64,000 nt of DNA from Spirochaetota bacterium (GCA_965205605.1 CBDBHE010000006.1:1-64000), one strand, 5' to 3'; positions 15,795 through 52,974 are shown, counted from the first letter of the stretch. The notes: generated by a model from the sequence alone, not told the origin. Numbers and translations are program-made.

Positions 15795-15843
15795 ATAAAA
15801 ATAAGAATCTATTAAAAATGGTAAACAAATTTTTTTTTAAACA

Positions 15844-17397: not shown

Positions 17398-17505
17398 AAT
17401 ATTAAATTAAATTAAATTAAAGTTGCAATAGAGTGTAATAAATGATATTGTATAATTTACACACCTTAAATCAATATTAGAGCATTATAATAGGAGAAAA
17501 AAAAT

Positions 17506-20043: not shown

Positions 20044-20227
20044 AAAAAGAAAAAGAAGAACGTTTCCTGGTGGTTTTTTTCTATTGTTGATGAAGGACTT
20101 GCTAAAAGTATAATTTAGAAAATCCTAACTAGACTATATAGACACTTATCATAGACACTTAATTTGTCAGAGGAAACTTGTTTTTTTTTAAAAATAAAAT
20201 AATTAAATTTTTTGGAAAATAGATAAA

Positions 20228-20682: not shown

Positions 20683-20742
20683 CTATTTTAATCTTTCTTA
20701 TTTAAAAGAAAAGAGTATACTACTTTGAGGGATTTATAAACC

Positions 20743-21093: not shown

Positions 21094-21158
21094 ATTTAAT
21101 TAATCTATTATTTGTTTTTTCAAATTATTGTTTCATTTATTATCCTTAATTTTCATTT

Positions 21159-35723: not shown

Positions 35724-35732
35724 TTTTAAGCG

Positions 35733-37721
35733 ATGTTTTCTTCTAAAGTTTTATCTAGTGTTTTGGGGGGATGTTTTTTCTTCTTTTTGCTATTTGGTTT
35801 GGGAGATGGTTTTAATAAGAAGTATTCACAAATGATCATGTGGTATAAAAGTAAAGATAAAAATGATAATTCTAAAAATTGGGCTTGTCATAATTATGCA
35901 CATAATCTCATGATGACAGCAGAACCAAATGCTATTTTTATGACAGAAGGAGGTGATAATCAAGTTTTTTCACTTCTATACTTTTCTTATGTTGAGAAAA
36001 AAAGACCAGATATTGATTTTTATGATCAAAAAGGAAATGTTTTTCCAAGACTTTATGGAGATTTGATGAATGTGTTTTTTTATGATTTAGAAATCATTCG
36101 AGCGCTTAGAGATTTTCAACTTTATTCAACAGCACGACCTGTTTATCTAACTTGGAAAAGAGATGGCATTGAAAAAATTAGCTCGATAGGATTGCAAAAA
36201 ATTTATGAAAATACAGCTAAAAAAGCACAGCTTAATCGATCTTTTGTAGGAAAAAAATATGATTTAACAACCCTTGATAAAATTGAACAAGAAGTCGACA
36301 CCATGGTCCCTAAAGCAACTTTTGATATGAGATTTAAAAATGGAGACCTTATTAGTCAATTTGATATGAAAGAAAAAGGCCCTTGGTTTTTTAAAAATTA
36401 TGGACTCCTTTATAAGCTAGTGCCTCTTCGTTATAGTATTTTAGAAGCTTTGAAAAATAAAAAACAAGCTTCTTATTTTCAAATTGTTACTTACATTAAT
36501 CAGGTCTTTGATTTCCCCATTACTGTTTTAGAGTTAACAAAACAAGTTAAATTATTAGAGGCAGAAGGTTATATTAGTGAAAATGGAAGTCAAGTTTTTC
36601 TTCTTAAAAGTAGAAAAGATCCTTTTAATGAAAATTACTGGCAATTGTATAAAAAAGATTTTACTAATGTGGCAAATGCAAATCAATGGGATTATTTAAC
36701 TCGAGAAATTTTTTATAATTATTTTATTAATGAAGCAAGTGATTTACTTGAAAAGAAAAAAATTTTAGCTTTAGAAAAATCTACCTTACTTGGTGACTTG
36801 GTACTTACTTTGGACAAGCAAATAGAAACCCTTTATCAATCAGCTTGTCATTATGCTCATAACGTAAAATCTGCTTTTTACTTTTATGCTCGTTTTGCTT
36901 TAGATCAAGGTAATCTTAAAAAATCAACTTCTCTTTTTTCTAATTGCGCTAATGTGGATTATAATTTTTATGATCCGTATTTAACCATTTCAAAGTTATA
37001 TTTACAAAAGTCTTTATCAAGCCCTTTAGAAGACGAACAAAAATATTTATTGATTGCCCAAGAAAATGTTCAAGAAGCTAAGAAAATTTACCAAACAAAA
37101 GCCAAGGTACAAGGAACCCTTAAAAATATTGAAGAAGAAAAAAAGTATCAAGCCATCAAAGCCTTAGACCAACAAATCTCTAACTTTATACAGATCCCTA
37201 GAAAATCTCTTAATCAATTGATTAAAAATGCAAAACAAGGAGAGATAAAAGATCTAGAAACTCTTTTTATTGCTTATCAAAAACGAGCTGATTTTTTTCA
37301 AGCCAATAAAACTATTAATCAAATTTTACAAAAAAAACCTTTTAATATTCATTATACTTTAATGGCATATAACTTTTTTATCCAATATGATACTTTAAGA
37401 GGGATTGCTTTTTTAGAAAAAGTGGTCGCCAATTATGACTTTTACAAAGGAAAAAAACCTTCTATTTTTGATTTTCAAGAACGTTGTGCTTCAGACTATC
37501 TAAAACAAGCTGAAAGTAGTCTCAATAATCAAAATTATAAACAAGCTCTTTATTTTTATCGTCGCTCTCTTTATTATATGAACCTTTTTAAACAATTCAC
37601 TTTTGATCAGAAAACTAACCCATCACTTAGAAAACGAATTATTACTATAGAACGAACCGAACGTTTAGTTGAAGATCGGATTAAAAAAATAGAATCATTA
37701 TTATCAGAAAAAAAATTATAA
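35733..37721 (+). CDS. DUF2723/TMEM260-like C-terminal periplasmic part with TPR-like helices
   Basis: YAHNLMMTAEPNAIFMTEGGDNQVFSLLY...VEKKRPDI, a block normally found in the C-terminal half of DUF2723 proteins; one N-terminal TM. Confidence 0.75.
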   Translation: MFSSKVLSSVLGGCFFFFLLFGLGDGFNKKYSQMIMWYKSKDKNDNSKNWACHNYAHNLMMTAEPNAIFMTEGGDNQVFSLLYFSYVEKKRPDIDFYDQKGNVFPRLYGDLMNVFFYDLEIIRALRDFQLYSTARPVYLTWKRDGIEKISSIGLQKIYENTAKKAQLNRSFVGKKYDLTTLDKIEQEVDTMVPKATFDMRFKNGDLISQFDMKEKGPWFFKNYGLLYKLVPLRYSILEALKNKKQASYFQIVTYINQVFDFPITVLELTKQVKLLEAEGYISENGSQVFLLKSRKDPFNENYWQLYKKDFTNVANANQWDYLTREIFYNYFINEASDLLEKKKILALEKSTLLGDLVLTLDKQIETLYQSACHYAHNVKSAFYFYARFALDQGNLKKSTSLFSNCANVDYNFYDPYLTISKLYLQKSLSSPLEDEQKYLLIAQENVQEAKKIYQTKAKVQGTLKNIEEEKKYQAIKALDQQISNFIQIPRKSLNQLIKNAKQGEIKDLETLFIAYQKRADFFQANKTINQILQKKPFNIHYTLMAYNFFIQYDTLRGIAFLEKVVANYDFYKGKKPSIFDFQERCASDYLKQAESSLNNQNYKQALYFYRRSLYYMNLFKQFTFDQKTNPSLRKRIITIERTERLVEDRIKKIESLLSEKKL

Positions 37722-39587
37722 ATGAGCCTTTTATTTAAAGTTTTTTTTTATAGTTATCTTTTTTTAAGTATTTTTTTATTCGCTCAAGATAAAGGTTATT
37801 TAGAACTCAAACGTCTTTTTGAAAAAAGTCTTTATAATGAAGCTTATGATCGAGCTAATTATTATTTTGATGAACAAAAAAATGATTTTAGATTTCGAAA
37901 ACTTTATTTTGAAATTTTGCTAAAAAAAAAGCTATTTGACAAAGCTTTAGTAGAATTAGAATGGTTAGAAAAAATTGAAAAAACAACAGATACTTTTTAT
38001 TTAAGAGCTCTTTATTACTTTAATATTGGAGATCTAGTAAAGTCAGAAACTTTTTGTAAAAAAGTTCTTTTTTATAATAAGAGAAATATTCAAGCGATGT
38101 TGCTTTTAATTAAGATCAATAAAGAAAAAAAATACGACACCGTTGTTGAAAACCTTTTAGAAACTATTGAAACCATTGATCCAGAAAATGAAGAATTTCT
38201 TTTTGAAAAAGGGATTATTAGCCTTGATAAGGATTTAAAAAATTTTAAGTTAACGCTTAAAAAAATGCAGCAACATTACCCTGAATCTCACAAGTATTTT
38301 TATATGGAAGCTCGTTTTTCTCAAAAAGAAAAAGATTTTGAAAAAGCACTTTCTTGGATTAATAAAGCTATTTATTATCAGGCCAATAATCACCAATATA
38401 TTAATCTTAAATCTGAGGTGCTTTTTAAATTAAAAAAGTATGAATTCTTAATTAATTTCATTTTATCTAATAAGGATAAAGAGCCTTATGATTACTATCG
38501 GTTGGCGTTTCTTTATTATATGAAGACAAGAAAAAATCTTTGGAAAGTTGATAATTTGGATTATTTAGAAGTCAATATTTTGTCTATCATTAATCAGTGC
38601 CTTAATTTAAACGCTACTTTAGAAATTCCTAGGCGATTTGGAGAAATTATGGCTATTTCAAATACTTCTTTTAGATCTGAGGTTAGAAAAATTTTTACTC
38701 CTTACCATTATGAAAGAGCTAAATTTTTTCATAGTAAAGGATATTATGCGATGGCAAGATTTGAATATATTAAACTAATTCACCTCTTGCCACAAGAAGT
38801 AAAATATCGAAAAGAATACGCCTTGCTTTTAAAGGATCAAGGGCTGTATGCTTCTTATTTAAATCAGCTTGAGGTTGTTAAATTTTTGGAGAAGAAAGAA
38901 GATTACAAATTGGATACAAAAATTGGGCTACTTAAACGTAAGTTGAAAAATTCCCTTCATGTTAAAGAAAGCATTAAAAATGAAACTAGAAAAAAATTTA
39001 AAACAAGAATTTTATTTATTGCTCCAGATGAAGATATTTCTTTAGAAAATCCTCTTTATTTAGCTATTTATCATAATTTATTACTAGATACTTTTAAATT
39101 AGTTATTAAGTTTGATGTGGCATCGTGTTATTTTAAAGATTTTGAAAAAGAAATTTTGGAAAAAAGATATGATTTTTATGTTCGTTATTCTTTTCAGTTT
39201 AAAGAAGATAGAGTGGGAGTTGATTTTAATATTTTTGATGTTAATACTAGAAAAAAACTTTATCAGCATCAAATTTTTTCTTCTGGAAATGATAAGCTTT
39301 TTCAACTTAATTTTTCAGCTAAAAAATACTTTGATTCGATTATTTCTTTAAGGGGCAATGTTTTAAAAACAAAAGCAAATGGAGAGATTATTATTTCTTT
39401 AGGAATTTTAGATGGGCTTAAAAAAGATCAAGAAGTTTTGATTAAAAAAAACGATAGGACTTTTGTTGCTAAAGCGAAAGTAGTAATTCTTGATGAAAAT
39501 ATTGCAATGCTTGAATTGCTCGACAAAAGTAAAATTAATTTTATTAGAACTGGCTTTGTTATTGAAGAAAGTAAGAAAAAAAAATAA
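37722..39587 (+). CDS. Exported TPR protein with FlgT-C-like C-terminal domain
   Basis: Signal peptide, multiple TPR-like helices, C-terminal GNVLKTKANGEIIISLGILDGLKKDQ. Confidence 0.7.
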   Translation: MSLLFKVFFYSYLFLSIFLFAQDKGYLELKRLFEKSLYNEAYDRANYYFDEQKNDFRFRKLYFEILLKKKLFDKALVELEWLEKIEKTTDTFYLRALYYFNIGDLVKSETFCKKVLFYNKRNIQAMLLLIKINKEKKYDTVVENLLETIETIDPENEEFLFEKGIISLDKDLKNFKLTLKKMQQHYPESHKYFYMEARFSQKEKDFEKALSWINKAIYYQANNHQYINLKSEVLFKLKKYEFLINFILSNKDKEPYDYYRLAFLYYMKTRKNLWKVDNLDYLEVNILSIINQCLNLNATLEIPRRFGEIMAISNTSFRSEVRKIFTPYHYERAKFFHSKGYYAMARFEYIKLIHLLPQEVKYRKEYALLLKDQGLYASYLNQLEVVKFLEKKEDYKLDTKIGLLKRKLKNSLHVKESIKNETRKKFKTRILFIAPDEDISLENPLYLAIYHNLLLDTFKLVIKFDVASCYFKDFEKEILEKRYDFYVRYSFQFKEDRVGVDFNIFDVNTRKKLYQHQIFSSGNDKLFQLNFSAKKYFDSIISLRGNVLKTKANGEIIISLGILDGLKKDQEVLIKKNDRTFVAKAKVVILDENIAMLELLDKSKINFIRTGFVIEESKKKK

Positions 39588-40461
39588 CTTTTTTTTAAAA
39601 ATATTTTTTATTTCTTTTTTATTTCTTTTTTATTCTTTTGTTTATGGAAAACAAACCAATTACTATGGAATTGTTGTTTTAAAAAAAAGTAAACTTGAAG
39701 GAAAGGTTTTTGCTTTTAATCAACAAACATTACAGACTATTTTACTTAAAGAAAATGAAAATGTTTTGCCTTTTGGATCTTATGAAATCACGTCTTCTTT
39801 AAAAAGCTATCAAGATTTTAAAACTAATTTGATTCTTTCTAAAGATGACTTTAGAATTACCGTTTCTATTGATTATCGTTTAAATCCGTTTACTCTTAAT
39901 TTTAAAGGACTTGTAAGAAAGAGCGAGTTTTATTTTAATAAAAAGTATGTCACTACTTTTAAATCTCCCCAAGTAACACTTTCTAATATAGAAGGAGGAA
40001 AGCATCGTATTTTTTTAAAAAAGGGAGATTTATTTTATTATAAAACAATTGATTCCAAAGGGGCATCTACTATTACCATCAAAGATCCTGTGATGAATCA
40101 ATTACAATATAAGGCCTTACTGGCGTCATTAATGGGAATGATTCCTGGTTGTAATTTGTTTTTGCATTTGCCTCAGTCTTCACTTGAATATTTAATTCCG
40201 ACTTCTTTACTTTTTTATACAGGAGTTTTTTTAAAACTGAGTTTAAATCATATGAATGTTTTATTGCTTTCTCCTTATAATGATTCGATTAGAGATGATG
40301 CTTTTAATTGGATGATTATTTTATCTTCTATTTTTCATGTTCTTTTTGTTTATAATGGGACAGTGCAAGACTATAAAATGATTAAAAAAGATTACTTGCC
40401 TGTAAATGAACAAGGATTGATTTTATCTATAAAAGGGTTGTATTATAGTTATTATTTTTAG
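39562..40461 (+). CDS. Hypothetical exported/membrane protein with PEGA-like beta domains
   Basis: LPFGSYEITSSLKSYQDF and NIEGGKHRIFLKK resemble PEGA repeats; C-terminal hydrophobic helices; start uncertain (TTG 39562 or 39490). Confidence 0.5.
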   Translation: MKKVRKKNNFFLKIFFISFLFLFYSFVYGKQTNYYGIVVLKKSKLEGKVFAFNQQTLQTILLKENENVLPFGSYEITSSLKSYQDFKTNLILSKDDFRITVSIDYRLNPFTLNFKGLVRKSEFYFNKKYVTTFKSPQVTLSNIEGGKHRIFLKKGDLFYYKTIDSKGASTITIKDPVMNQLQYKALLASLMGMIPGCNLFLHLPQSSLEYLIPTSLLFYTGVFLKLSLNHMNVLLLSPYNDSIRDDAFNWMIILSSIFHVLFVYNGTVQDYKMIKKDYLPVNEQGLILSIKGLYYSYYF

Positions 40462-43400
40462 AAAAGAATTTTTCCTTTAATGGAAAAATCAAAACCCATT
40501 TGAATATAATCATCTTCTCTTAAATAATTTTCTTGCCAGTTAGCATTGTTATTATAAGGGATTTTTAAATAAGCTTGAAAAGAATTAGCAACAAACTCAG
40601 AAATAACAGCAAGAACAAAAGAAGTTTCAAAAGAAAAGTTTTCAGTTACTTTATAAATATTTAAAAAAGTTGCTTTTGTTAGCCAATTTCTTACGATTTT
40701 ACTATTATTGGGATTTGTGAATAAAGAAAGATTTTTTCTACCGATGGCATTAGGTTGATCGTTAGGAGAGACTTTGCCGTCTTCTAAAAGCGTTGAACGA
40801 TTGACAAAGGGAAGGTCATAATCATAAAAAGTAAAATCAAAGCTAAGTCTTTTGGAAGAATTAGGAGGTAGGGAAAATAGATTAAAAAATTTTGTAGGAT
40901 TTTTGTTTTCCCAAGAAAAAGCAAGTCTAAAAGAATGCGTTCTTTTAATAAGGTCGGTGGGATCTTTTCCAAAATCATTGATATCTGAAAAAAAATAAAT
41001 ATTTTCTAATTCTCCTAAATTAAGTGTTTCTTCTGTCTTTAGGGTTGAGTCAGTAGATTTAATTTCATGATAGGGACCTATTCCCAGATAAGGCAAATAA
41101 TGAGTTTTGCCTTGTGTGTCATTATATCGATAACGAAGAGCATAATAAGTTTCTGTTTGATCAAAAATATAAGCACTTTGAATATTGACATGTTTGATTA
41201 ATTGATAATTATTATTAAGAGTAAATTTATATTTTTTGATCAAACTTTTTTCGTTAAAATCTTTGTTTTCATTAAACTCTAATGCGGCACTAAAATTAAT
41301 CGATCGTTCAAAATCTTTTGCTTTAGGGATCCATTTTCTACTGATATAATGACTAAGAGATTGAAAACGTTTTTCTAATTTTAAAGAACGATTTTGTTTT
41401 TGATAAATAATCCAATTTGTTTTTCTTGTTTCTAAGCTTCCAGAATATAAAAACTGACTTGGTAAGTAATCTTTTAAAATAGGGATTCTTGATAAATTCA
41501 TTTCCATACGAAATGATTCATTATGGCTGACTGTAGAACTAAACTCAGAATGAGACGTAAATTGAGAAATATGTTCAGTGCCACTAAAAGAAGGTTTTTT
41601 ACTTCTATAATTAATACTGCTATCAATCTCTTTAGAAGCCCAAAAACGATGTGCGTTTAAAAAAGAAAGTCGATTTCTTTCATCATTTTTTAATTTTCCT
41701 ATAAAGGGACTGATCACTGCATAAGCTAAATCGTTTAAAAACCAAAAATCAAAATAAGGAAAATAAAGAGCGGTGCTTCTTATTTTTTCAAAATAAGCTA
41801 ATTGTTGTTCTTCTCCTTTAAGGCCAATGCTTAAATCTGAAAAATTATCTTCAATTCCTTTCCAAAGTTTTTTTTCACTTGAAGAGAGATCATTTTCTTT
41901 TAAATCTAAAACATTATTTTCTAAAAGAGAAAGCCTTCTAGAAAAATTAAGTCGAAGCGATTTGAATAAATGATTTTTGAAAATAATAGGTAATGTAAGA
42001 TTTAGATTTAGTGTATTTTGAATGTTTTTATATTTTTGTTCGTCTTGATAAAAATCAACTAATTGATCACTATAATCGATGAGTAGTTTTTTTTCTTTAG
42101 AAGAATAATTATTTTGATTGGTTTGATAGAGTATAAACTCACTACTTAAGAAATCAGTTGTTGTTTTTCTAAAATTGTTTTCTGCATACGAATAAGAAAT
42201 AGATGCATTAAAACTAGATAAAAGAGGAGTATTAAAAATATAAACAGGGTTTAGATAAGAAAAAGTAATAGAATAATTTCTTTTTTTTGAAAGATATTTT
42301 GATTGATCTTCTATAAAAGGGTTACTAAAAATACTCGAAAACTCAGACCAATAAAATTCGTACCATTGGAGTTCGATGGATTCTTTTTCATAAAGGGAGG
42401 CGATTTTTTCTAAATCAAGTTTAGAAATATTAGTACTTAAAAGATTGTGTTGATCTTCTATTGTATAACGGAAATCAAGTCTAAATTTTTCAATGCCAAG
42501 AGTCGTTGAAATGGATTGTCTTTGGTAGAAGCTATATTCTAATTCTTCTAGGAGATTTCTTTTTTCATCAATTGAATCTGAAATATTTGGAAATTTTTCT
42601 AAAATAGGAAATCGTTTTTTATTTGAATTTTCGTCTAGGAGTTCTACAGGGTGGAAGAAAGGGTCTTGAGTGTTATAAAAAACAACTTCGTTAATATCAA
42701 CATTTTTTTTTAAAAGAGCTATTTTATTAAAAGTAGTGGCTATTTTGTATTCTTGATCAATGAATAAATCGGGAGTAAAATTAAATTTTTTTGATTCCCC
42801 TAAACTATAAGTTTTAACACTAATTTCATTTAAGTCTAAAGAATATTCTCGATTAATAACATTAGAGCTTAACGTCACAAAGCCAAGGTTTCGAGTTTTA
42901 TTATAACTGGCGGTATGTTGGATGGTGGGTATTATTAGATTATCTTTTAGATCAAGTTGAAAACTAAATCCAGTTAAATCTCTGTGAGTTAACGTTTGAT
43001 TTTCTTTAGGGAGAAAAGATTCTCTATATTCAGAGACATCGTAATCTTTTGATTTATTAAAAGAAAATCTAAGTCTATCTAGAATTTTTGTCTGAAGATT
43101 GAAAGAAGATAGTTCTTGTTGATTTCTGTTGGCTTGTTGATCAAGCGTACTAAAGCCAAGACCTTCGTGGCGATATTTAAAACTTGATTGGGTTTCACTA
43201 ATGATATTACGCTGTCGATATTGTAAAGGTTCATTTTGTTTGTAAGTAAGACCAAAGCGATAGGCATGACCGAAAAAAATTTCACTGTTATCCACATGAA
43301 ATTCATTTAACCAAAAACGTCCTGTTGCATTTTGCCCTTTAGAATCCACCCCTATTAAAAAATAACTTACTTCATAAAGGCTCGGGTTTCCTATTTTTCG

Positions 43401-46400
43401 AATTGTATAATCATCAAAATCTACATTTTCTAACTTTCCTTCATCTCGATTTCCTTCGTTTTTCACCTCTAAAGAGCTTTTCGAAAGCAGAAAATAATGG
43501 TCGTCTCTATAAGCAACTCTATTCATGAATTGTTGTTCTTGGTAGTCTTTTCCTCTTAGTTTTATATTTAGTTCGTGCCATTTATTTTGATTATTTCCAT
43601 TACTTTCTCCGATATTTTTAAAAGGAATTCGGAGTTCAAAATAGTTGTTTGGATTATCTCCAAATTGGTAAACAAGTTCTTCATTTCCAGAAGAGTAATC
43701 CACAGGATAAAAATATAATTTAAAATCTTTATAATAAGATAAATTAAGAGTTCTCTCTCCCTTTGCTTCATAGCGTTCTACCCAGGCAAAGCGTCCATCT
43801 ATACTATTGCTAATATTTTTATTTTCAACTCCATTTAAGTTATATTCGATATTTTGAGCTTGTTCAGTGAGGGTTTCAAATTCACGACTTAGCAAATTCC
43901 CATGCAGTCTTTCATAAGCCCTACGATATGCTTTTGAGAGGTGGTTTTTGTTGTAAAAATCATCTTGTTTAGTATTAATAGTTGAAAACAAAAACTGTCT
44001 TGGTGTAATCACTTCATTATTATCGACTTTAGCCTGCTGCCAAGTCGTGCCTTTAAAGCGAATGCTATCAATCACCACACGTCCTTTATTAAAAGCAGAG
44101 TTTGTAATTTCTAAAAAATTAAGTCGTAAATGCGTGACTTTAGTAAGACTATTATTAGTAACAAGATTCCTAAGAGGAACGGTGATTTTGATATATCGCT
44201 CTTTTTGAAACACGTCTGTTGAAGAACTATTGTTGTCTAAAATTTCATAAAAAGCTCTATTGGTATTAAAAGTATTTAAATTAAGCCCTTGGTCACTAAT
44301 GTACTCAGAATTAAACAGAAGAAAGTAATTTGTTGGGTTTTGACCTAATTCTGAACTAGGATAATTTATAATTTGTTCTTGAGAACTTGTTAAAGTGTCA
44401 AGTTGACCGTTTTGGTTTAAATCTTCTGTATCTTTTCGACCATTTCCTTCTGCAATATCATTTGGACTATTCCATCCTTTGTCACCGGCTCCTAATTTTG
44501 TTTCAATAGTATTAAAAATAGGAGATTTATTATAATTAAAAGTAAAACCATCAGCATCACTAATAAAATTTTCTTCATCCAGCTGACCATCTAAGTCAAA
44601 GTCTTCATTCAAATTGCCAATATCAATTGAAAACCCAAGTACTTTTGGATTATCTTCTAAATTCCCACTATTATCTGTTGTAGGAAGAAGTTTATAAATG
44701 ATTTCGATGGTGTTATAGCGTTTAAAATCACTAGATCTACCTACAAATTGAGCTCTGGTAATAAAAGAAACATAGCCATTAGAAGGACTTGTCGTTGCAT
44801 GAGAGGCTTCGAAATCATAATCAAAAACTAAAGAACTTTGATAGGGATAAAGTGTTCTACTTAAATGCCCTTCACTAACAACTTGATAAGGACCAGGCCT
44901 CACATTAAAAGGTCTAAAGTTGACATCTTGACGATAAATAAGGCCATTGGCATTATTGGCTCGCATAGCTTGTTCATTGTTTAAAGTAAACTCAATAGGC
45001 ACTTTATTGTCTGGATTTAAAAAAGAATATTCTGAAAAATCAATGTAATAACTTTTTCCAAGAGAACGATTTGCTAATGTTTCTAGCTGTGGGTTGGCTG
45101 TTAAATAATAACTATGATGATTCCCTGGAAAAGAAAAAGTTAAATCATCGCCTTCAACTGTATTAATGATTGCTTTTCCATTATTATTTGGGTTGTAAAT
45201 AGAAAAAGCATATTCACCATCTAAAATCAGAGAAGATTTATTAAGACGACGGCGTTGAAACATGCTAATTAAATCAATAGAAGTATCAATGTCACCTACT
45301 AACTGACTGGTTGATTCAAAACCTATTTGAGGAGCATTTAAACTGGCTTGGCCTAAAGAACCCGCTAAAGTCATACCGATATAATTTTCTTCTCCTCTAA
45401 ATTTCCAATCCATTCTTGCTGCTGCGATGGCTTTTTGAAGAGATGAACCAAAAGGTCGATATTCATAATAAACTTTTAATTTATTTCCTCTATACAATTC
45501 TTCTCCTTTATTAAAAAAAATTCTTCCAAAACTAGTAACGGTATATTTTTTTTTTTCTAATAGCTGATTATCTTTATAAATAATTACAGATTCAGGAATA
45601 ATATTAAAGCGTTCTAAATCAATATAATTTTTGTATTGTGTTTTATAGTTTAATTCAAGGTTAATGCGATTGTTATTTTCTGCATTTGGTTCTTTTACAG
45701 AATACATATTGGCATAATAGGCACTTTGTCTTGTAAAAACGGCTTGATCTTCAAAATAAAAATAACCTTTATTAAGGCTTATTTTACTATCACCATAAAT
45801 ATCAAAAGTATGATTAAAGGTCCCTCTCCACTCACTAGGATCAATTTTGATATTATTGTTATCTGTAATGAGTATCTTTAAACTTTCTATTTCAATGGAT
45901 TTTTCAATACGGTACCGATTTCTAAGTTCATAATAATTAGTAATATCTCTATCACCTAATTGTTCATCGGAGACAAAAATAATCACAAAGTTTGTTAAAG
46001 TATCACTTAAGTTTTGTCTATGATGAATTGTATAACTAGGGCCAAAAAAGTAACTAGCGTTTGTCCCTGTTGTCGAACGATAAGCTCCATTTGTTTGTTG
46101 AAAATTATAAAATAAAAGCGTGTGACCTTCTGGTTTACTTTTTTTGTGTTCAAAAACCCCCATATCATTTTCAATTTCATAACTTGCTTCACTGAGCTTT
46201 TTAAAATAACGACTGCCATTAATAATACCATCTCCATTGATATTACTAATGACTAAAAAAGCTTGAGAATAATTATCAGAATCTGTAATTTCTTCGTAAT
46301 AGTGAGCTTCATTAATATTACGATCAGGTAATTGAAAATATCTATTTTTAATATAATCAATGTCTCTTATGGTTTTTTGTTCTTTGCTTTCGATTGTAAA

Positions 46401-47315
46401 TTCTTTGACTTCTGAAACCCCTGCCGATAAGCTTAAAGAAGATTCAAAACTAAAAGGCCCTTTTTTCCCTTGAAGTAAAACACCAAATCCTTCTTTTTGA
46501 AGCCCTCCTGCTGTAATAAATTCAGATTTTGACCTAACGTTTAAATCAATTTGTCCAAACTTAATTTTTTTCAAAAGCTCATCATTATCTCCTACATACT
46601 CAATACGATAAGTATTCCTTCTATTTCGACTATTATGATTAACCTCTAGCTCTATTTTTCTTCCTATTTTTCCTTTGAGGTTTAAAATTAAGTTTTGATC
46701 GGCTGTGAGCCCATTACCAATTAAAGTAGGATCTAAAAAAGGCTCTTGAATTAGAGGGTTAAGACCTGTGAAGAAATCTTGAAAAATATATTGATAGGCG
46801 TAATTTCTTTTTTGTCGTTCTGAAGGGATGAGTTTGTTAATATACTGTGAAAACCCATAACGAAAACTAATATCTTGATTTCCAAATAAGCGTAAGCTTG
46901 TTTCAATATCTTCAAAAGAAAGCCCTAAATTTAATCCTTTTTTTTCTGTTTCATTTTTCCCTTCTCTTTCTCTTTGAATTTTTTTTAGTAACCATTTTGC
47001 TTCTTTATCATAAGTGATCAAGTGATCTCCAAAAAAATCTTCTCCGTATTTATAATAATCTTTTAAATAAAGATTTAAAATGATAGCTCTTAAATAGGTG
47101 CTTTCTTCACTAAGTTGGTCTAAAGAACTGTAATCAAGATTAGTGTAGATATAAAAGTTTTTATTAATTTCTTTTTCATTATTTTCCAGATTATTTTGGC
47201 TTAACTCTAAGAGCTTGTCTTCTAAAAGACTTGGGAAATCATAAATCTCTTCACTATAAATATAAACAAAAAATAAGAAGAAAATTAAAATAATTCTTCT
47301 TAAAAATGAGAACAA
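40458..47315 (-). CDS. Very large outer membrane protein, SprA/Sov-like (type IX secretion translocon homolog)
   Basis: 2285 aa with signal peptide; LNLKGKIG...RIEYVGDNDELLKKIKFGQI, TEDLNQNGQLD, LSYYKDFKLYFY and GRFWLNEFHV resemble SprA blocks; ends in Phe (FSIKGKILF). Confidence 0.72.
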   Translation of the reverse strand: MFSFLRRIILIFFLFFVYIYSEEIYDFPSLLEDKLLELSQNNLENNEKEINKNFYIYTNLDYSSLDQLSEESTYLRAIILNLYLKDYYKYGEDFFGDHLITYDKEAKWLLKKIQREREGKNETEKKGLNLGLSFEDIETSLRLFGNQDISFRYGFSQYINKLIPSERQKRNYAYQYIFQDFFTGLNPLIQEPFLDPTLIGNGLTADQNLILNLKGKIGRKIELEVNHNSRNRRNTYRIEYVGDNDELLKKIKFGQIDLNVRSKSEFITAGGLQKEGFGVLLQGKKGPFSFESSLSLSAGVSEVKEFTIESKEQKTIRDIDYIKNRYFQLPDRNINEAHYYEEITDSDNYSQAFLVISNINGDGIINGSRYFKKLSEASYEIENDMGVFEHKKSKPEGHTLLFYNFQQTNGAYRSTTGTNASYFFGPSYTIHHRQNLSDTLTNFVIIFVSDEQLGDRDITNYYELRNRYRIEKSIEIESLKILITDNNNIKIDPSEWRGTFNHTFDIYGDSKISLNKGYFYFEDQAVFTRQSAYYANMYSVKEPNAENNNRINLELNYKTQYKNYIDLERFNIIPESVIIYKDNQLLEKKKYTVTSFGRIFFNKGEELYRGNKLKVYYEYRPFGSSLQKAIAAARMDWKFRGEENYIGMTLAGSLGQASLNAPQIGFESTSQLVGDIDTSIDLISMFQRRRLNKSSLILDGEYAFSIYNPNNNGKAIINTVEGDDLTFSFPGNHHSYYLTANPQLETLANRSLGKSYYIDFSEYSFLNPDNKVPIEFTLNNEQAMRANNANGLIYRQDVNFRPFNVRPGPYQVVSEGHLSRTLYPYQSSLVFDYDFEASHATTSPSNGYVSFITRAQFVGRSSDFKRYNTIEIIYKLLPTTDNSGNLEDNPKVLGFSIDIGNLNEDFDLDGQLDEENFISDADGFTFNYNKSPIFNTIETKLGAGDKGWNSPNDIAEGNGRKDTEDLNQNGQLDTLTSSQEQIINYPSSELGQNPTNYFLLFNSEYISDQGLNLNTFNTNRAFYEILDNNSSSTDVFQKERYIKITVPLRNLVTNNSLTKVTHLRLNFLEITNSAFNKGRVVIDSIRFKGTTWQQAKVDNNEVITPRQFLFSTINTKQDDFYNKNHLSKAYRRAYERLHGNLLSREFETLTEQAQNIEYNLNGVENKNISNSIDGRFAWVERYEAKGERTLNLSYYKDFKLYFYPVDYSSGNEELVYQFGDNPNNYFELRIPFKNIGESNGNNQNKWHELNIKLRGKDYQEQQFMNRVAYRDDHYFLLSKSSLEVKNEGNRDEGKLENVDFDDYTIRKIGNPSLYEVSYFLIGVDSKGQNATGRFWLNEFHVDNSEIFFGHAYRFGLTYKQNEPLQYRQRNIISETQSSFKYRHEGLGFSTLDQQANRNQQELSSFNLQTKILDRLRFSFNKSKDYDVSEYRESFLPKENQTLTHRDLTGFSFQLDLKDNLIIPTIQHTASYNKTRNLGFVTLSSNVINREYSLDLNEISVKTYSLGESKKFNFTPDLFIDQEYKIATTFNKIALLKKNVDINEVVFYNTQDPFFHPVELLDENSNKKRFPILEKFPNISDSIDEKRNLLEELEYSFYQRQSISTTLGIEKFRLDFRYTIEDQHNLLSTNISKLDLEKIASLYEKESIELQWYEFYWSEFSSIFSNPFIEDQSKYLSKKRNYSITFSYLNPVYIFNTPLLSSFNASISYSYAENNFRKTTTDFLSSEFILYQTNQNNYSSKEKKLLIDYSDQLVDFYQDEQKYKNIQNTLNLNLTLPIIFKNHLFKSLRLNFSRRLSLLENNVLDLKENDLSSSEKKLWKGIEDNFSDLSIGLKGEEQQLAYFEKIRSTALYFPYFDFWFLNDLAYAVISPFIGKLKNDERNRLSFLNAHRFWASKEIDSSINYRSKKPSFSGTEHISQFTSHSEFSSTVSHNESFRMEMNLSRIPILKDYLPSQFLYSGSLETRKTNWIIYQKQNRSLKLEKRFQSLSHYISRKWIPKAKDFERSINFSAALEFNENKDFNEKSLIKKYKFTLNNNYQLIKHVNIQSAYIFDQTETYYALRYRYNDTQGKTHYLPYLGIGPYHEIKSTDSTLKTEETLNLGELENIYFFSDINDFGKDPTDLIKRTHSFRLAFSWENKNPTKFFNLFSLPPNSSKRLSFDFTFYDYDLPFVNRSTLLEDGKVSPNDQPNAIGRKNLSLFTNPNNSKIVRNWLTKATFLNIYKVTENFSFETSFVLAVISEFVANSFQAYLKIPYNNNANWQENYLREDDYIQMGFDFSIKGKILF

Positions 47316-47342
47316 GGGGATTAATTTAGATGAATTGTTTTT

Positions 47343-49118
47343 TTATTTAAGGCTTCTAATATCATTATAGAAAACAAATACAAATAAGCAAATCAAAAAT
47401 ATAAGCCCACAAATATGGATTACGTTTAAAATTTCTTGCTTAATAGGTTTTCTTCGAAAAAGTTCGTATAAAAGTATGATAAAATGTCCCCCATCAACAA
47501 CAGGAATAGGTAACATATTCACAATGGCAAGACTAACTCCTATTTTAGCAAAAAGTAAAATAAAATAGGCCAGTCCTTTATTTTCAGCAACATAATAAGA
47601 AACTTCAAAAATTCTAATAGGTCCCCCTAGCATTTTCACAGACATCTTTCCTGTAATCAGTCTTTGTAAAAAAGTATAAACTTCTTTTAATTCGTCACCT
47701 GTCTTTCCAAACGCTTTGTATAAAGAGGTGCCAAGGGAATAACGAATAATTTTATTTTCTTCTTTTAATTTAACAAGATGACCTTTTTCTTTTAAATCAA
47801 GTATTAATTTTGAAATTGAAACAACTTTAGGTTTCCCTCTTCTTACGATGACAAAATCAACGATGGTTTCTTTAATTTTTGTTTTTAAAATTTGATCCCC
47901 TACTTTAAGACCTTCACCTAATTTTGAAAGGGAAGGATTTAAATAGCTAACTTGGTTGGCTTTTTCCTTAAAGGTGATAGAATGAGAAATCCCAAGAAAA
48001 TACCTTTCTTTATTAGAATCAAATTGAGGGGTTAAAGTTAAATTGGTAATAATATCCTCTCTTTTAATAGAGAGGATAATGGGTTTATTTGCTTGGATTT
48101 TTTTAGAAGATTGGTTTAGATCTTCCCATCCTTTAATAACTTCTCCGTTAAAAGAAAGAATTTCATCCCCATTTTTAAACCCTGCTTTTTCAGCGGCTCC
48201 ATTAGGAAGCACATCGATGATGGCTTTTAACATATAGCCTTTTGAAAAGATTTTTTCAGCAGGAATGATTGTCTTTTGAATGACAATTTGGTTTTCTTTT
48301 CTAACAAATAAGGTTACTTGTTTGTTAGGGTTATTGTAAATGAGATCGTAAATACCGTAAGGAGTTTGCCTAGTGAGGTTAGCAGTGGGGATGTGTGCTT
48401 TAATAATTTCTCCTTGTGTTATAAGAGAGTTTGAAACATCATTTTTTTGATGAATAATGGCAGCACTATAAGGCAAAATTCCTAATTGAGGAGGAAGATC
48501 ATTTTTTTGATTTATTTTTTTAAGCTTTGTTTTAAAAGTAAGGTTTTTATCAAGTCGTTTAACCCCAAGCACCACTTCTTTAGAAGTATCTTTAATAAAA
48601 GCAACTTCTGTTAAGATTTCTTCCCAAGTTTCTACTTTTTTATCATTGATATGAGTGACTTCATCTCTTAGCTGAACCCCACTGTTATTAATAGGAAAAG
48701 AAGGCATAAAACCACCTACTTTATTGGTTGTAAACGGAACTCCGATTTTAAAAGCAATTACAATTAAAAAATAAGCGAAAATGAGGTTCATAATCACCCC
48801 TGCAGTCACAATAAAAATTCTTTGTAAAGGAGTTTTGGATAAATAATGACCTTCTTCAAAGAGATTTTTTTTTGTTTTTTTGGTATTACGTTTAGGAAGA
48901 TCTTCTTGGCCTAGCATTTCAACATAGCCCCCGATAGGCAGTAGGGCAATAATGTAATCAGTCCCTTTTTTGTCTGTATACAGATGCAGGATTTTAGGTC
49001 CCATGCCAATAGCAAATGTTTTTACTTTTACTCCCACTATTCTAGCAGCTAAAAAATGACCTAGCTCGTGAACAAAAATAGTTAAAGTAAACCCAATTAG
49101 AATCATTAAAACAATCAT
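47343..49118 (-). CDS. rseP: RIP metalloprotease RseP (M50) with PDZ domains
   Basis: FVHELGHF, LPIGGYVEM, AGVIMN, NMLPIPVVDGG. Confidence 0.95.
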   Translation of the reverse strand: MIVLMILIGFTLTIFVHELGHFLAARIVGVKVKTFAIGMGPKILHLYTDKKGTDYIIALLPIGGYVEMLGQEDLPKRNTKKTKKNLFEEGHYLSKTPLQRIFIVTAGVIMNLIFAYFLIVIAFKIGVPFTTNKVGGFMPSFPINNSGVQLRDEVTHINDKKVETWEEILTEVAFIKDTSKEVVLGVKRLDKNLTFKTKLKKINQKNDLPPQLGILPYSAAIIHQKNDVSNSLITQGEIIKAHIPTANLTRQTPYGIYDLIYNNPNKQVTLFVRKENQIVIQKTIIPAEKIFSKGYMLKAIIDVLPNGAAEKAGFKNGDEILSFNGEVIKGWEDLNQSSKKIQANKPIILSIKREDIITNLTLTPQFDSNKERYFLGISHSITFKEKANQVSYLNPSLSKLGEGLKVGDQILKTKIKETIVDFVIVRRGKPKVVSISKLILDLKEKGHLVKLKEENKIIRYSLGTSLYKAFGKTGDELKEVYTFLQRLITGKMSVKMLGGPIRIFEVSYYVAENKGLAYFILLFAKIGVSLAIVNMLPIPVVDGGHFIILLYELFRRKPIKQEILNVIHICGLIFLICLFVFVFYNDIRSLK

Positions 49119-49160
49119 TTTATTTTTCCTTAACTTTTGTATTGTATCACTAAAATAGTT

Positions 49161-50296
49161 TTAATGCTTTGAGATAATTCCTTTTTTTATTTCTTTATCT
49201 AAAGTAATAATGTCTTTTAAAGTCATGTTATTTTTGATAGGGTAGGTTGAAACAGCTTCATAAACAATTGAATAAATTTCTTTAAAAGTTATCTTTTTAA
49301 GTAAAAAAAGATTGACAGCTGCTTCATTAGCTGCATTTAAAATTGCGTTACAAGAGCCTCCTTTTTTTCCAGATTCAAAAGCAAGTTTGAGTAAAGGAAA
49401 TTGCTTTAAATTAGTTTTAAAAAACTGAAGTGATGCCACTTCCCAAAGCTTAAAAGATGGTAAAGACGATGGGTATAGGTGGGGATAGGTTAGGGCGTTT
49501 TGAATGGGTATCTTCATATCACGATGTCCTATTTGAGCGTAAAGTTCACCTTCGATAGTTTCAATAAAAGAATGAACAATTGATTGAGGATGAATAATGG
49601 TTTCTATTTTTTCATAAGGCAGATTAAAAAGGTAATGTGCTTCAATAATTTCTAGCCCTTTATTCATCATCGTTGCTGAATCAATTGAAATTTTTTTCCC
49701 CATTTTCCAAGTAGGATGATTTAAAGCTTGCTCAACACTTGGGTTTTTGATATTTTGATTAAAAAAAGGACCTCCAGAAGCGGTTAGAATTACTTTTTTC
49801 AAGTTTTTTTTTTCTAAGTTTTTAAGCATCATAAAAATAGCAGAATGTTCACTATCAATCGGCAAAAGTTTGATTTTTTTTTTTTTGCTTTTTGAATGAC
49901 TAAATCTCCTGCCATCACAAGCGTTTCTTTATTGGCTAAAGCGATATCAGCTTTTTTTTCAATGGCTAATAGAGTTGGTTCTAAACCCACACTGCCAACA
50001 ACGGCATTAATAAGGAGTTGGAAAGAGCTTTCTAAAACAGCTTCTTGGATGTTATTTTTAATTAATATTTTGGGGAATTCTTTTTTAATTTCTTGATAAG
50101 CTTTTTCATTATCAATGCAGATAATTTCAGGGTTTAAAAGATTAATTTGTTTTTTTAATAGGTTTTTGTTTGTATGGGCACTAAGACCTACTATTTTATA
50201 TTTAGGGGTTTTTTCTAGGTGGTTTAAGTGTTGGATGGTTGCAATTGTATTGGTGCCAATAGAGCCAGTGCTACCTAAAATAAAAACACGTTTCAT
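49161..50296 (-). CDS. dxr: 1-deoxy-D-xylulose 5-phosphate reductoisomerase, interrupted by a frameshift at an A13 tract
   Basis: 5' ORF has LGSTGSIG and LANKETLV; 3' ORF has LPIDSEHSAIF, LTASGGPF and HPTWKMGKKISIDSATMMNKGLE; the frames switch at T13 (49874-49886). Confidence 0.93.
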
Positions 50297-50312
50297 TTTT
50301 TAAAATGAACGG

Positions 50313-50903
50313 TTATTCAATTAAAGAACGATGGAATAAAGCTTTTTTTAAAGTAATTTCATCAATATATTCTAATTCTGTTCCTATTGGGATGCCAATA
50401 GCAATACGACTAAGTTTGATTTTTTTGTCTTTAAACTTACTTCTTATGATTTTAATAGTTGCTTCGGCTTCGATTGTTTGTTCTAAAGCAAAAATGACTT
50501 CATCAACGGGGTAAGTGAGACGTTTTAGTAGGGTATTAATGGATATATCTTGTTCATTAATATCATTGATAGGTGAAATAAGCCCACCTAAGACATGATA
50601 AAGACCTAAATAAGCATGCGCTCTTTCTATGTTAAGGGCATCTTGAATGCTCTTAACAACACAAATACTTTTCTTGCTTCTCTTTGACGAAGTGCAAATT
50701 TTACAAGGTTTTTGCTCAGAAATGAGCCCGCAAATATGACAACGAACGGTTTTTTCAATAAAGTCTTCAATGGATTGTGTGAGTAGCTTGACTTCTCGTT
50801 TGTTGGATTCTAAAAGATAAAAAGCAATATTTTCCGCTGATTTTTTTCCGATAGAAGGCAGTCTTTTTAAAGCTTGAATCACATTATTAAAGCTGGAAGC
50901 CAT
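50313..50903 (-). CDS. recR: Recombination protein RecR
   Basis: LPSIGKKSA, CHIC...CKIC zinc finger, YHVLGGLISP, RIAIGIPIG. Confidence 0.95.
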   Translation of the reverse strand: MASSFNNVIQALKRLPSIGKKSAENIAFYLLESNKREVKLLTQSIEDFIEKTVRCHICGLISEQKPCKICTSSKRSKKSICVVKSIQDALNIERAHAYLGLYHVLGGLISPINDINEQDISINTLLKRLTYPVDEVIFALEQTIEAEATIKIIRSKFKDKKIKLSRIAIGIPIGTELEYIDEITLKKALFHRSLIE

Positions 50904-50916
50904 TAAAAAATTCTAA

Positions 50917-51234
50917 TTAAAAAGAAGGAAGGTCAGGAATATTGAATCCTTTTGTAAGGCCTTGAAGTCCACTTTTTGCTTCTTCGTCTGCTTTGGCAAT
51001 AGCACTATTATAGGCAGAAACAATTAGATCTTCTAAAACTTCAACTTCCTTAGGATCCACAACTTCTTTACTAATTTTAATTTTTTTTGCTTCTTTTTTC
51101 CCATTGATAGTAACCGTAACTAAATCGCCACCTGAAGAAGCTGAAAACTCTTTATTCTCTAGTTTTTGTTGTGCTTTTAGCATTTCTTGTTGTAATTTTT
51201 GAGCTTGTTTTAACATATTGTTCATTTGATTCAT
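50917..51234 (-). CDS. ebfC: YbaB/EbfC family nucleoid-associated protein
   Basis: MLKQAQKLQ...SSGGDLVTVTING...LEDLIVSAYN; lies between dnaX and recR. Confidence 0.93.
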   Translation of the reverse strand: MNQMNNMLKQAQKLQQEMLKAQQKLENKEFSASSGGDLVTVTINGKKEAKKIKISKEVVDPKEVEVLEDLIVSAYNSAIAKADEEAKSGLQGLTKGFNIPDLPSF

Positions 51235-51268
51235 TTTTTTTTAAAAACCTCTTTTTTGGGTACAATTC

Positions 51269-52726
51269 TTATTCTTCTGTAATAGAACCATTGAAAATTT
51301 CAGCAGCCTGTTCTGCACTTGATTTAAAAGATCCTTCTTTAAGAAAAATTTTATTTATTGTATCATTTCCTTTCTTTTTTATCTTATCGAATAAAAGATT
51401 TTTAAATTGTTCCCAAATTTTTTTATTCAATTTATTTTTAATTGTTGAAAATGTAAGTGTTTGTTTATTAAAATCTTTTAATACAATCGTTTGTTTTAAA
51501 TCTTTCATTGATGGGTTTTGTTTTTCAATTTCGTCAATAAAGCCATTGATATCTTCTTTAGATAAAACGTCTTCTTGTTTTTCAAGATTTTTTGCAAAAG
51601 CGAGCAAGTCTGTTTTAAGTTGTTCTGGAGTAATAAGGGTCCGATAGCGATGAAGTTTGATTAGAAAAAATTGAATCATTATCTTTTCACTGATGGTTGT
51701 TTTGAGTTCTTTTAAAAACTCAAAGCAAATATCATTTAATAAAAATAGTTCTTCGACTTCAAAATAGTCTTTAATTTCTTTTAAAAAAACAATGTGTTCT
51801 TCACTTACTTCTAAAAGATTGGGGTCTTCTAAGCCTTCTTTAAGATAAAGAATGGTTGAAAAACATTCGATGAGTTCATAAAGAAATAATTGAATATCTT
51901 TGCCTTCTTCTAAAAGAGCAGAAACAATTTGCTTTGTATGCGTTATTTTATTTTCAAATAGAGAATGAATAAATTTTTTTTTAATCTCTAACTCTGTTTT
52001 TCCAAGAAGAGCAATTGTTTTTTTTTCACTTAAATGCCCTTGGCAATAAGCAATCACTTGATCGAGAATATTTTGAGCATCTCTCATGGATCCATTTCCT
52101 CCTTGAGCAATGTGAAAAAGACTTTCTTTATCATAGGTGATTTTTTCTGCTGCTAAAATAGCTTTCAGTTGGGATTCAAGGGTTTTAATGTCAAACGCTT
52201 TAAAAGCATAATGCTGGCAACGAGAGCGAATCGTTACAGGGACCTTGTGACTTTCTGTTGTACAAAAAATAAAAATCACTTTAAAAGGAGGTTCTTCAAG
52301 AGATTTTAAAAGTGCATTAAAAGCTTCTATGGTCAACATATGCACTTCATCAATAACAAAAATACGATATTTCCCTTCAGGAGATGAATACTGCAGGCTT
52401 TCATTAAGTTCTCTTATTTGGTTGATGCCCCTATTAGAAGCACCATCAATTTCTTTATAGTTAATGGAAGTATTAAGGTGGACTTCTTGACAAAAACTGC
52501 AAATGTTACAAGGTTTTTCAGTAGGAGCATCAGTGCAATTAAGCGCTTTAGCAAGGATCCGTGACATCGTTGTTTTTCCTACCCCTCTTGGTCCTGAAAA
52601 AAGGTAAGATTGAGAAATCTTCTTTTTTAAAATTGCGTTTTTAAGTGTAAGAGTGACATGTTTTTGACCTAAGACTTCATTAAAATTTTGAGGTCTCCAT
52701 TTTCTAGCTGTAATTAAATAGCCCAT
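51269..52726 (-). CDS. dnaX: DNA polymerase III subunit gamma/tau
   Basis: ARKWRPQNF, GPRGVGKTT, IDEVHML, AFNALLKSLEEPP, SRCQ, GSMRDA. Confidence 0.96.
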   Translation of the reverse strand: MGYLITARKWRPQNFNEVLGQKHVTLTLKNAILKKKISQSYLFSGPRGVGKTTMSRILAKALNCTDAPTEKPCNICSFCQEVHLNTSINYKEIDGASNRGINQIRELNESLQYSSPEGKYRIFVIDEVHMLTIEAFNALLKSLEEPPFKVIFIFCTTESHKVPVTIRSRCQHYAFKAFDIKTLESQLKAILAAEKITYDKESLFHIAQGGNGSMRDAQNILDQVIAYCQGHLSEKKTIALLGKTELEIKKKFIHSLFENKITHTKQIVSALLEEGKDIQLFLYELIECFSTILYLKEGLEDPNLLEVSEEHIVFLKEIKDYFEVEELFLLNDICFEFLKELKTTISEKIMIQFFLIKLHRYRTLITPEQLKTDLLAFAKNLEKQEDVLSKEDINGFIDEIEKQNPSMKDLKQTIVLKDFNKQTLTFSTIKNKLNKKIWEQFKNLLFDKIKKKGNDTINKIFLKEGSFKSSAEQAAEIFNGSITEE

Positions 52727-52750
52727 AGATAATCTTCTTTTAAAAAAAGG

Positions 52751-52865
52751 TCCCCTGTAAAGAACGATAATCTTTTCACCTTAACAAATCATCTTCCGCT
52801 GCTGTCTTCCGACCCTGACGGCTTGAGATGATTTTTAATCGAAAAGCATCCCTCTTCACAGGAGT
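52751..52865 (-). ncRNA. ffs: Signal recognition particle 4.5S RNA
   Basis: Minus strand CCG-TCAGG-GTC-GGAA-GAC-AGCAG-CGG (SRP domain IV) inside a long hairpin (CTCCTGTGAAGA...TCTTTACAGGGG); typical position upstream of dnaX. Confidence 0.9.
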
Positions 52866-52974
52866 TTTAGTTATTTCTATTAATAGAATTTAATCTATTT
52901 TATCATTTCATTAAAGACATTTAATTTTTTTTTAAAATTAAAAAAAAGAAGATTTAGAAAAATTTAATGAGTTT

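Follow-up and report, generated by a model that had tools for sequence, protein, structure and literature searches.

A strongly diverged SprA/Sov-like protein, probably an outer-membrane channel, encoded beside rseP in a Spirochaetota genome

We describe a 6.9-kb open reading frame (ORF) in a 64,000-nucleotide stretch of DNA from a Spirochaetota bacterium (GCA_965205605.1, CBDBHE010000006.1:1-64000; this whole stretch is called the window below). Its product of 2285 amino acids is homologous, over at least residues ~200–1400, to SprA of Flavobacterium johnsoniae (Fjoh_1653; PDB 6H3I/6H3J and 8GL6/8GL8) and Sov of Porphyromonas gingivalis, the 36-strand barrels that serve as outer-membrane translocon of T9SS, the type IX secretion system. 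This homology, established by profile comparison, we regard as solid. Taken together, sequence and predicted structure point to a SprA/Sov superfamily protein that has diverged strongly and is probably an outer-membrane channel for proteins. The host appears to lie outside the published range of T9SS: in the excerpted text of Abby et al. (PMC4793230), of 97 Bacteroidetes genomes 60 have the system, and no other clade does, and a passage of PMC11285876 extends it at most to the other phyla of the Fibrobacteres-Chlorobi-Bacteroidetes (FCB) group, calling it “absent from other bacterial phyla.” A clear SprA homolog in a spirochaete-type genome stands in contrast to this confinement.

The gene and the parts of its product are as follows.

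40458..47315, minus strand: SprA/Sov-like gene, 2285 amino acids, predicted giant outer-membrane beta-barrel (from the ORF, profiles, hhalign and Foldseek)
47253..47315, minus strand: signal-peptide-like N-terminus, residues 1–21, M/L-FSFLRRIILIFFLFFVYIYS followed by EE (read from the translation)
46326..46718, minus strand: conserved block 1, residues ~200–330, LKGKIGRKIE...YRIEYVGDNDELLKKIKFGQI, aligned to SprA 155–329
45075..45755, minus strand: conserved block 2, residues ~521–747 (approximate, from profile positions), aligned to SprA 641–887
44397..44618, minus strand: two acidic motifs, G..NEDFDLDGQLDEE and GNGRKDTEDLNQNGQLD, residues 900–973, the most conserved part of the family
43116..43766, minus strand: conserved block 3, residues ~1184–1400, including LSYYKDFKLYFY and GRFWLNEFHV, aligned to SprA 1350–1562
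40461..43328, minus strand: C-terminal strand-rich region, residues ~1330–2285, ending in Phe, most of the predicted barrel wall

The ORF is a single intact frame with a TTG start. The G+C content around it is ~29% (28–31%), and an open frame of 6.9 kb in such DNA is far longer than expected by chance. The N-terminus, RRIILIFFLFFVYIYS, resembles a signal peptide (judged by eye from the translation) and is modelled as a helix (H2–18). The C-terminus reads ...KGKILF, and 90% or more of 26 family sequences share its last residue, F2285. A putative signal peptide and a C-terminal aromatic residue are both signs of export to the outer membrane. A first-pass annotation of this DNA had described an exported protein of this length ending in Phe, as the translation bears out, and had quoted five peptide blocks, all of which are present about where it placed them: LNLKGKIG...RIEYVGDNDELLKKIKFGQI at residues ~210–257 (about 46545–46688), EDFDLDGQLDEE at residues 904–915, TEDLNQNGQLD at residues 963–973 (44397–44429), LSYYKDFKLYFY at residues ~1192–1203, and GRFWLNEFHV at residues ~1332–1341 (about 43293–43322). 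Three of them fall within stretches aligned to F. johnsoniae SprA by an eight-sequence profile (LKGKIG...KFGQ, YYK..K.Y.Y and GrfW.NE).

The homology to SprA emerges from family profiles. A word-indexed protein search found seven relatives of the window protein, with identities of 87, 48, 37, 33, 33, 25, and 24%. The profile built from these eight sequences matches SprA (6h3i/6h3j) in the PDB at E 4.3e-22 over three collinear stretches, the best of which is block 2 (37.3 bits); SprA is its sole significant match, all others having E ≥ 0.38. When 19 proteins from related loci (see below) were added, the resulting 26-sequence family profile matched SprA at E 4.4e-70 (240 bits), covering SprA residues 3–2018 of 2403. 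In the reverse direction, the proteins retrieved by the family profile include some from Bacteroidaceae, Chitinophagales and Flavobacterium that carry the name “cell surface protein SprA.” We also compared profiles with profiles. With hhalign, a profile of the window protein and its closest relatives (the window clade) aligns to a profile of 10 canonical Bacteroidota SprA sequences with a probability of 99.91% (E 1.9e-34, 1066 columns); window residues ~200–1400 lie opposite columns 191–1558, the match beginning at residue 200, inside block 1. The broader family profile gives 100% and E 1.1e-71 and reaches column 1901 of 2474. Three of the five window-clade proteins tested match the curated SprA model TIGR04189 directly (P0005, 87.3 bits; P0006, 101.8 bits; P0280, 109.7 bits; E 4e-25 to 7e-32), below its cut-off of 200, and P0004 and the window protein have no match to it. 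The first-pass annotation had called the protein SprA-like; by profile and by fold it is a very distant but true homolog of SprA/Sov.

The two acidic motifs contain nine residues that are invariant across the 26 sequences (G900, E904, D905, E915, G923, N958, D962, E964 and D965), and both have counterparts in the canonical SprA consensus (GEISEDILKDG and PDxEDINQDNTLNE). They may have a role in calcium binding.

Does the predicted fold agree? We modelled two overlapping halves of the protein (residues 1–1200 and 1086–2285) with AlphaFold2 from family alignments. The first half (predicted local distance difference test, pLDDT, 71.2; predicted TM-score, pTM, 0.48) was compared with the PDB by Foldseek, and the top four matches are the four SprA chains 8gl6_A, 8gl8_A, 6h3i_A and 6h3j_A (E 6.7e-31 to 4.2e-19, probability 1.0), followed by a fifth match at E 1.7e-4 and probability 0.14. 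The second half (pLDDT 71.7, pTM 0.56) contains, from model residue 245 to 1199, 25 strands of 12–25 residues each. Its matches are again headed by these four SprA chains (E 1.7e-14 to 3.3e-11); next come RagA/SusC, TonB-dependent and MtrB barrels of 22–26 strands (E ≥ 7e-5) and one neuraminidase (6e-5). These models support a SprA-like fold of the window protein.

The host is likely a member of the Spirochaetota, perhaps Brevinematia-like, as judged from the window RuvB, from two small tetratricopeptide repeat (TPR) proteins and from the names of the protein's relatives. The best named matches of RuvB are “Spirochaetota bacterium” proteins at 67% and 60% identity, followed by Clostridia at 60%. 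The two named relatives of the window protein are hypothetical proteins from metagenome-assembled genomes (MAGs) labelled “Spirochaetes bacterium” and “Brevinematia bacterium”; here and below, taxon labels are the submitters' own record titles. The two TPR proteins (60278–61626, plus strand) weakly match the C-terminal part of FlcA, a spirochaete periplasmic flagellar collar protein, at no more than 49 bits (cut-off 300), which hints faintly at a spirochaete. The first-pass annotation had guessed at a spirochaete-like organism, and both RuvB and the nearest relatives agree.

To place the protein in a wider family, we used the acidic motifs as search patterns in a GTDB-representative collection with one genome per species. 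Of 234 pattern matches, 31 were confirmed, and the scan yielded 30 loci, the best of which encodes a protein 25% identical to the window protein. By title, nine of the loci belong to Spirochaetota, seven to Elusimicrobiota/Endomicrobiia, six to Cloacimonadota, and four to Aerophobetes; the remainder are one from Firestonebacteria, two from “Clostridia” MAGs, and one unclassified. Among 17 locus proteins compared with TIGR04189, two, both from Cloacimonadota, exceed the cut-off (L011, 510.6 bits; L022, 464.2 bits); 11 of the 17 (11 of the 15 from outside Cloacimonadota) have significant sub-threshold matches of 111–194 bits; and four, all from spirochaetes (L004, L007, L012 and L028), have no match. 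Pfam SprA_N is detected in four of 21 locus proteins. The family is large: an exhaustive profile search of metagenome-derived protein clusters (50% identity) with the conserved 1200-residue core returned 5845 SprA-like clusters at E ≤ 1e-3, canonical SprA included; 1718 of them reach E ≤ 1e-30. Most of the top 150 have lengths of 1550–2100 residues.

In a maximum-likelihood tree of 26 full-length sequences, the window clade (six sequences) is monophyletic with full support (Shimodaira-Hasegawa-like approximate likelihood ratio test, SH-aLRT, 100) and stands apart from a clade of Cloacimonadota and Elusimicrobiota-type sequences. The one “Clostridia” sequence in the tree (L009) groups with Aerophobetes. 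This is a quick tree with an arbitrary root and many long branches, in which the deeper forks are partly unresolved. Proteins of the window clade are 2261–2324 amino acids long, those of the loci 1550–1940, and the extra length lies mainly in the C-terminal third.

Do members of this wider family have partners of the T9SS type? Two loci provide examples. In L018 (Aerophobetes; gene set at 56–9787), a 626 amino acid protein with immunoglobulin (Ig) domains and a PorV/PorQ family protein (212.2 bits against a cut-off of 90) are encoded within 4.3 kb after the SprA-like gene. Over its last ~95 residues, the Ig-domain protein resembles the PorZ model's C-terminal domain (E 2.3e-16), and its end also matches Pfam CHU_C and Por_Secre_tail under their cut-offs. 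In L019 (Elusimicrobia; gene set at 8327–15866), the SprA-like gene is followed, at a distance of 1 kb, by the start of a gene for a PorV/PorQ family protein (144.1 bits, cut-off 90). L006 and L014 encode PorV-family proteins with scores below threshold (48.6 and 55.9 bits), beyond lptFG. The PorV/PorQ proteins of L018 and L019, together with the C-terminal domain (CTD) in L018, argue that the wider family works with T9SS-type partners, and they show that at least some members outside the FCB phyla sit in T9SS-type gene sets. Motor genes (GldL/M) and GldN were seen at none of the 30 loci. In L019, a gene immediately upstream of the SprA-like one (3861–8123, minus strand) encodes a 1420 amino acid fusion of TPR repeats, a Ser/Thr kinase domain and a C-terminal FGE-sulfatase domain. 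We rejected it as GldK/PorK, since the domain is a generic FGE-sulfatase one that scores 120 bits against a cut-off of 350. An ORF of the same locus (16483–21348), considered as a second SprA paralog, proved to be a beta-propeller repeat protein.

Six of the nine spirochaete-labelled loci show another arrangement, in which an exported protein of 364–462 amino acids is encoded directly after the SprA-like gene; four copies are complete, and each of these has Phe as its last residue.

L001:13211-14425, L002:12216-13427, L003:8022-9116, L012:12666-14054, L028:13347-14723, L007:13225-13830: exported proteins following the SprA-like gene

They form two weakly related families, with no match in Pfam or NCBIfam and no profile match in the PDB. 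As an equivalent of PorV they find no support (hhalign probability 0.1–0.2% against two PorV-like proteins). In the ESM Atlas, look-alikes of one of them are porin-like and DUF5723-type clusters (TM-score 0.81–0.83), and on this structural lead we take the exported protein as a candidate partner barrel. None of the PorV-type, CTD-bearing or exported partners of the related loci has a counterpart in the window.

In the window, the SprA-like gene closes a run of genes on the same strand and meets a convergent gene at its end.

47343..49118, minus strand: rseP (site-2 protease, M50 plus PDZ), TIGR00054 275.5 bits against a cut-off of 147.55, Pfam Peptidase_M50
49161..50296, minus strand: dxr in two overlapping ORFs, 49829–50296 (155 amino acids) and 49161–49865 (234 amino acids)
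50313..52726, minus strand: recR, ebfC/ybaB and dnaX, head of the gene run, TIGR00615, TIGR00103 and NF004046 above their cut-offs
39490-40461, plus strand: 323 amino acid protein, convergent neighbor whose end overlaps the end of the SprA-like gene by 4 bases

The dnaX-ebfC-recR-dxr-rseP run ending in the SprA-like gene had been recognized in the first-pass annotation, and the gene calls agree. Only 27 nucleotides separate the rseP stop from the SprA-like start, and the two genes are probably co-transcribed; a promoter and terminator scan of 39000–53500 found sites no commoner than in shuffled sequence, so the operon claim depends on spacing. One of the dxr ORFs matches the N-terminal and the other the C-terminal portion of the Pfam and NCBIfam Dxr models, with a run of 13 A at their junction (about 49873–49885). 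The split may be a sequencing or assembly frameshift at the homopolymer, or a real or slippage-prone break. The convergent 323 amino acid protein belongs to no Pfam or NCBIfam family and has no counterpart in the related loci.

In E. coli-type operons, rseP is followed by bamA, and the first-pass annotation had seen the SprA-like gene as occupying the slot after rseP and had named rseP-sprA synteny in relatives as a point to check. The related loci do not bear this out. The window RseP has no tblastn counterpart in any of the 30 loci, and no Peptidase_M50 was found among 65 neighbors scanned in them; thus, the adjacency is not conserved among relatives at up to 25% identity. Instead, SprA-like genes in the related loci lie among housekeeping genes that vary by lineage. 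The genes lptF/lptG, which encode a lipopolysaccharide (LPS)-export permease, are linked at seven of the 30 loci (adjacent in L006, L010, L014, L015, L017 and L025; 3 kb away in L011), which are Elusimicrobiota-type, Firestonebacteria, one unclassified MAG and the Cloacimonadota locus L011. A comF-like gene follows the SprA-like gene in eight of the 30, and coaX lies upstream of it in five Cloacimonadota loci.

How does the protein compare with known systems? It resembles SprA in its size (2285 versus 2403 amino acids), its putative signal peptide, the three collinear blocks and the acidic motifs, and both of its predicted halves have SprA as best PDB match. It differs in an aligned identity of ~17%, in the failure of the curated models, in a host that appears to be from Spirochaetota rather than Bacteroidota/FCB, and in that counterparts of PorV, Plug, PPI, SprE and SkpA have not been identified for it. 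With the Cloacimonadota proteins of L011 and L022 it shares a common family alignment, the invariant motifs and housekeeping surroundings (coaX, peptidases, lptFG nearby); unlike it, they pass TIGR04189 and fall in the separate clade with Elusimicrobiota-type sequences (SH-aLRT 100). The proteins of L001–L030 (from Spirochaetia, Brevinematales, Elusimicrobia, Aerophobetes and Firestonebacteria, among others) are 16–25% identical to it and have the same architecture and motifs, but the window protein is longer, its neighbors differ, and none of those loci has rseP. As for bamA, a predicted outer-membrane barrel gene here directly follows rseP; unlike BamA/Omp85, the window protein matches neither POTRA nor Omp85 domains in Pfam or NCBIfam, and its fold and sequence point to SprA. 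Unlike TonB-dependent and SusC transporters, it has no Plug or TonB_dep_Rec match, and these barrels appear only as secondary Foldseek matches (E ≥ 7e-5 versus 1.7e-14 for SprA).

An excerpt of one account based on the Flavobacterium structures (PMC10994853) describes SprA as a 36-strand barrel, capped on the outside, with a lateral opening where PorV docks. By analogy, the window protein would be exported by Sec and inserted by the beta-barrel assembly machinery (BAM), and its one chain may form a barrel with well over 30 strands, capped on the extracellular side, through which proteins could cross the outer membrane of a Brevinematia-like spirochaete cell. A smaller outer-membrane barrel partner is probably encoded elsewhere. 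A transport role is most likely, as far as homology can tell, and the channel could work either with or without the rest of T9SS.

Several observations weigh against a SprA-type channel. The window protein by itself matches neither Pfam SprA_N (PF14349) nor TIGR04189, even at E ≤ 10; direct Pfam/NCBIfam scans at this threshold return noise only (Raftlin, 0.028; VC1465, 0.18), and phmmer against all PDB sequences finds no match. Of the SprA profile comparisons that the first-pass annotation had suggested, the direct SprA_N and TIGR04189 searches failed, and those with family profiles and hhalign succeeded. TM-scores of the half-models to SprA are low (0.24–0.37, at a pLDDT of ~71), as expected for halves of one huge barrel in models of moderate confidence. 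At this confidence, strand number, cap and lateral opening are not visible in the half-models; of the very large barrel that had been anticipated, SprA as best PDB match for both halves was recovered, and the giant closed barrel was not seen in the halves. The 64-kb window yielded no PorV/PorQ, GldK/L/M/N, PorU/Z or PorP protein and none bearing a CTD, and the barrel-like exported proteins of related loci show no sequence relation to PorV and are absent from the window. Finally, the proposed function is drawn from homology alone, and evidence for transport is confined to members from Bacteroidota.

The absence of T9SS partners agrees with the first-pass annotation, which had recognized none. 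In our scans with Pfam and NCBIfam, no T9SS family was found among 46 other window ORFs, and no CTD model matched the window ORFs (27 ORFs by NCBIfam; also Pfam). Such an absence has little weight at 64 kb, given that the published T9SS model (excerpt of PMC4793230) treats sprA as a “loner,” one of its scattered genes. Could the protein then be the translocon of a complete but diverged T9SS, with its other genes elsewhere in the genome, so that T9SS extends into Spirochaetota? We consider this possible, though doubtful. Beyond the loner status of sprA, the PorV/PorQ genes beside SprA-like genes in L018 and L019 and the CTD-like domain in L018 speak for it, as does a PorV/PorQ-family barrel annotated in the spirochaete Brachyspira pilosicoli (a passage of 10.1101/2025.01.03.631275). 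Against it, PorV-type, GldKLMN-type, sortase and CTD genes are missing from the window; GldL/M and GldN are found in none of the 30 loci, where the sole match to a GldK model is the generic FGE-sulfatase of L019; and the published surveys, in the excerpts cited above, report no T9SS beyond Bacteroidota/FCB (PMC4793230; PMC11285876).

Another conceivable reading, again tentative, is that of a SprA-type channel which acts alone or in a minimal set, perhaps paired with one small barrel, and works without a GldKLMN motor or PorU/PorZ attachment complex; the first-pass annotation had this in mind when it spoke of a T9SS-independent or ancestral export channel. The housekeeping contexts (rseP in the window, lptF/lptG at seven and comF at eight of 30 loci) would fit such a channel. 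So would the six of nine spirochaete-labelled loci in which the gene is followed only by an unrelated porin-like exported protein, and a clade so diverged that curated SprA models miss the window protein. Yet the partners are known to be absent from just 64 kb of the genome, and L018 and L019 have PorV/PorQ neighbors, with a CTD in the former. Known SprA, moreover, requires proton-motive-force input from an inner-membrane motor, which drives substrate release (as stated in part of PMC10994853).

We judge it unlikely that a SprA-type barrel has been repurposed for the handling of LPS, lipoproteins or outer-membrane proteins, or for the uptake of large substrates, rather than secretion. The link to rseP in the window and to lptF/lptG in Elusimicrobiota, Firestonebacteria, the unclassified MAG and Cloacimonadota L011 suggests such a role, and importer barrels rank second, after SprA, among the fold matches of the C-terminal half. 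But gene order may reflect lineage history, and the lptFG loci are largely one clade; neither Plug/TonB-box nor Omp85/POTRA domains were found with Pfam, and the importer matches are about nine orders of magnitude weaker than those to SprA. A decaying relic or assembly artefact without function is very improbable: the neighboring dxr is frameshifted at a homopolymer, so breaks do occur in this assembly or genome, but the SprA-like frame is intact over 6.9 kb of AT-rich DNA, relatives are conserved end to end (32–87% identity, 2261–2324 amino acids), and the C-terminal Phe is retained across the family.

These findings broaden the range of bacteria in which to look for SprA-type export. The same diverged family is present in MAGs labelled Elusimicrobia, Endomicrobiia, Aerophobetes and Firestonebacteria, and whole clades of it are overlooked by the curated SprA models; two of the relatives, P0008 and P0009, are named “hypothetical protein” in NCBI. 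In open-access papers and bioRxiv preprints, we found no report of SprA homologs in Spirochaetota, Elusimicrobiota, Aerophobetes or Firestonebacteria. For little-studied spirochaete lineages, the gene offers a concrete candidate through which proteins might be exported across the outer membrane. It is tempting to speculate, and we rate this as rather unlikely, that SprA-type translocons are an old and widespread export channel of diderm bacteria (here Spirochaetota, Elusimicrobiota, Aerophobetes and Firestonebacteria) and not an invention of the FCB group, often paired with a PorV/FadL-like barrel, and in the Brevinematia-like window clade a housekeeping envelope component without the GldKLMN motor. 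Such a channel might be a missing route for surface proteins in some spirochaetes.

A few further genes of the window are worth mentioning. A plus-strand run (31411–40461) converges on the SprA-like gene and encodes a 946 amino acid M16 peptidase, a TMEM260-like putative protein O-mannosyltransferase, a 662 amino acid protein, a 621 amino acid TPR protein, and the 323 amino acid protein listed above. M16 peptidases of 930–952 amino acids are also encoded three to four genes after sprA in the Cloacimonadota loci L011 and L016. The proximity of sprA and M16 genes would thus be seen in at most two independent lineages, the window included, and we treat it as a possible coincidence. A “936 amino acid neighbor” in L001, L002 and L005 was rejected as an equivalent of the window peptidase, being isoleucyl-tRNA synthetase and DNA polymerase I.

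A sulfatase (11150–12661, minus strand) and a polysaccharide lyase family 8 (PL8) protein (17506–20043, plus strand; chondroitinase-AC and hyaluronate-lyase-like matches far under cut-off) together suggest glycosaminoglycan use, i.e., an animal-associated lifestyle; in domain scans, neither carries a T9SS C-terminal domain. A squalene/phytoene-synthase family protein (4080–5108, minus strand) and a B12-binding radical SAM protein (15844–17397, plus strand), whose best match is the hopanoid-associated HpnJ, far under cut-off, may take part in isoprenoid lipid modification. Finally, in the product of the gene at 21159–22847 (plus strand), a folate-binding domain of the aminomethyltransferase type (GcvT/YgfZ-like) is fused, unusually, to TPR repeats at the C-terminus.

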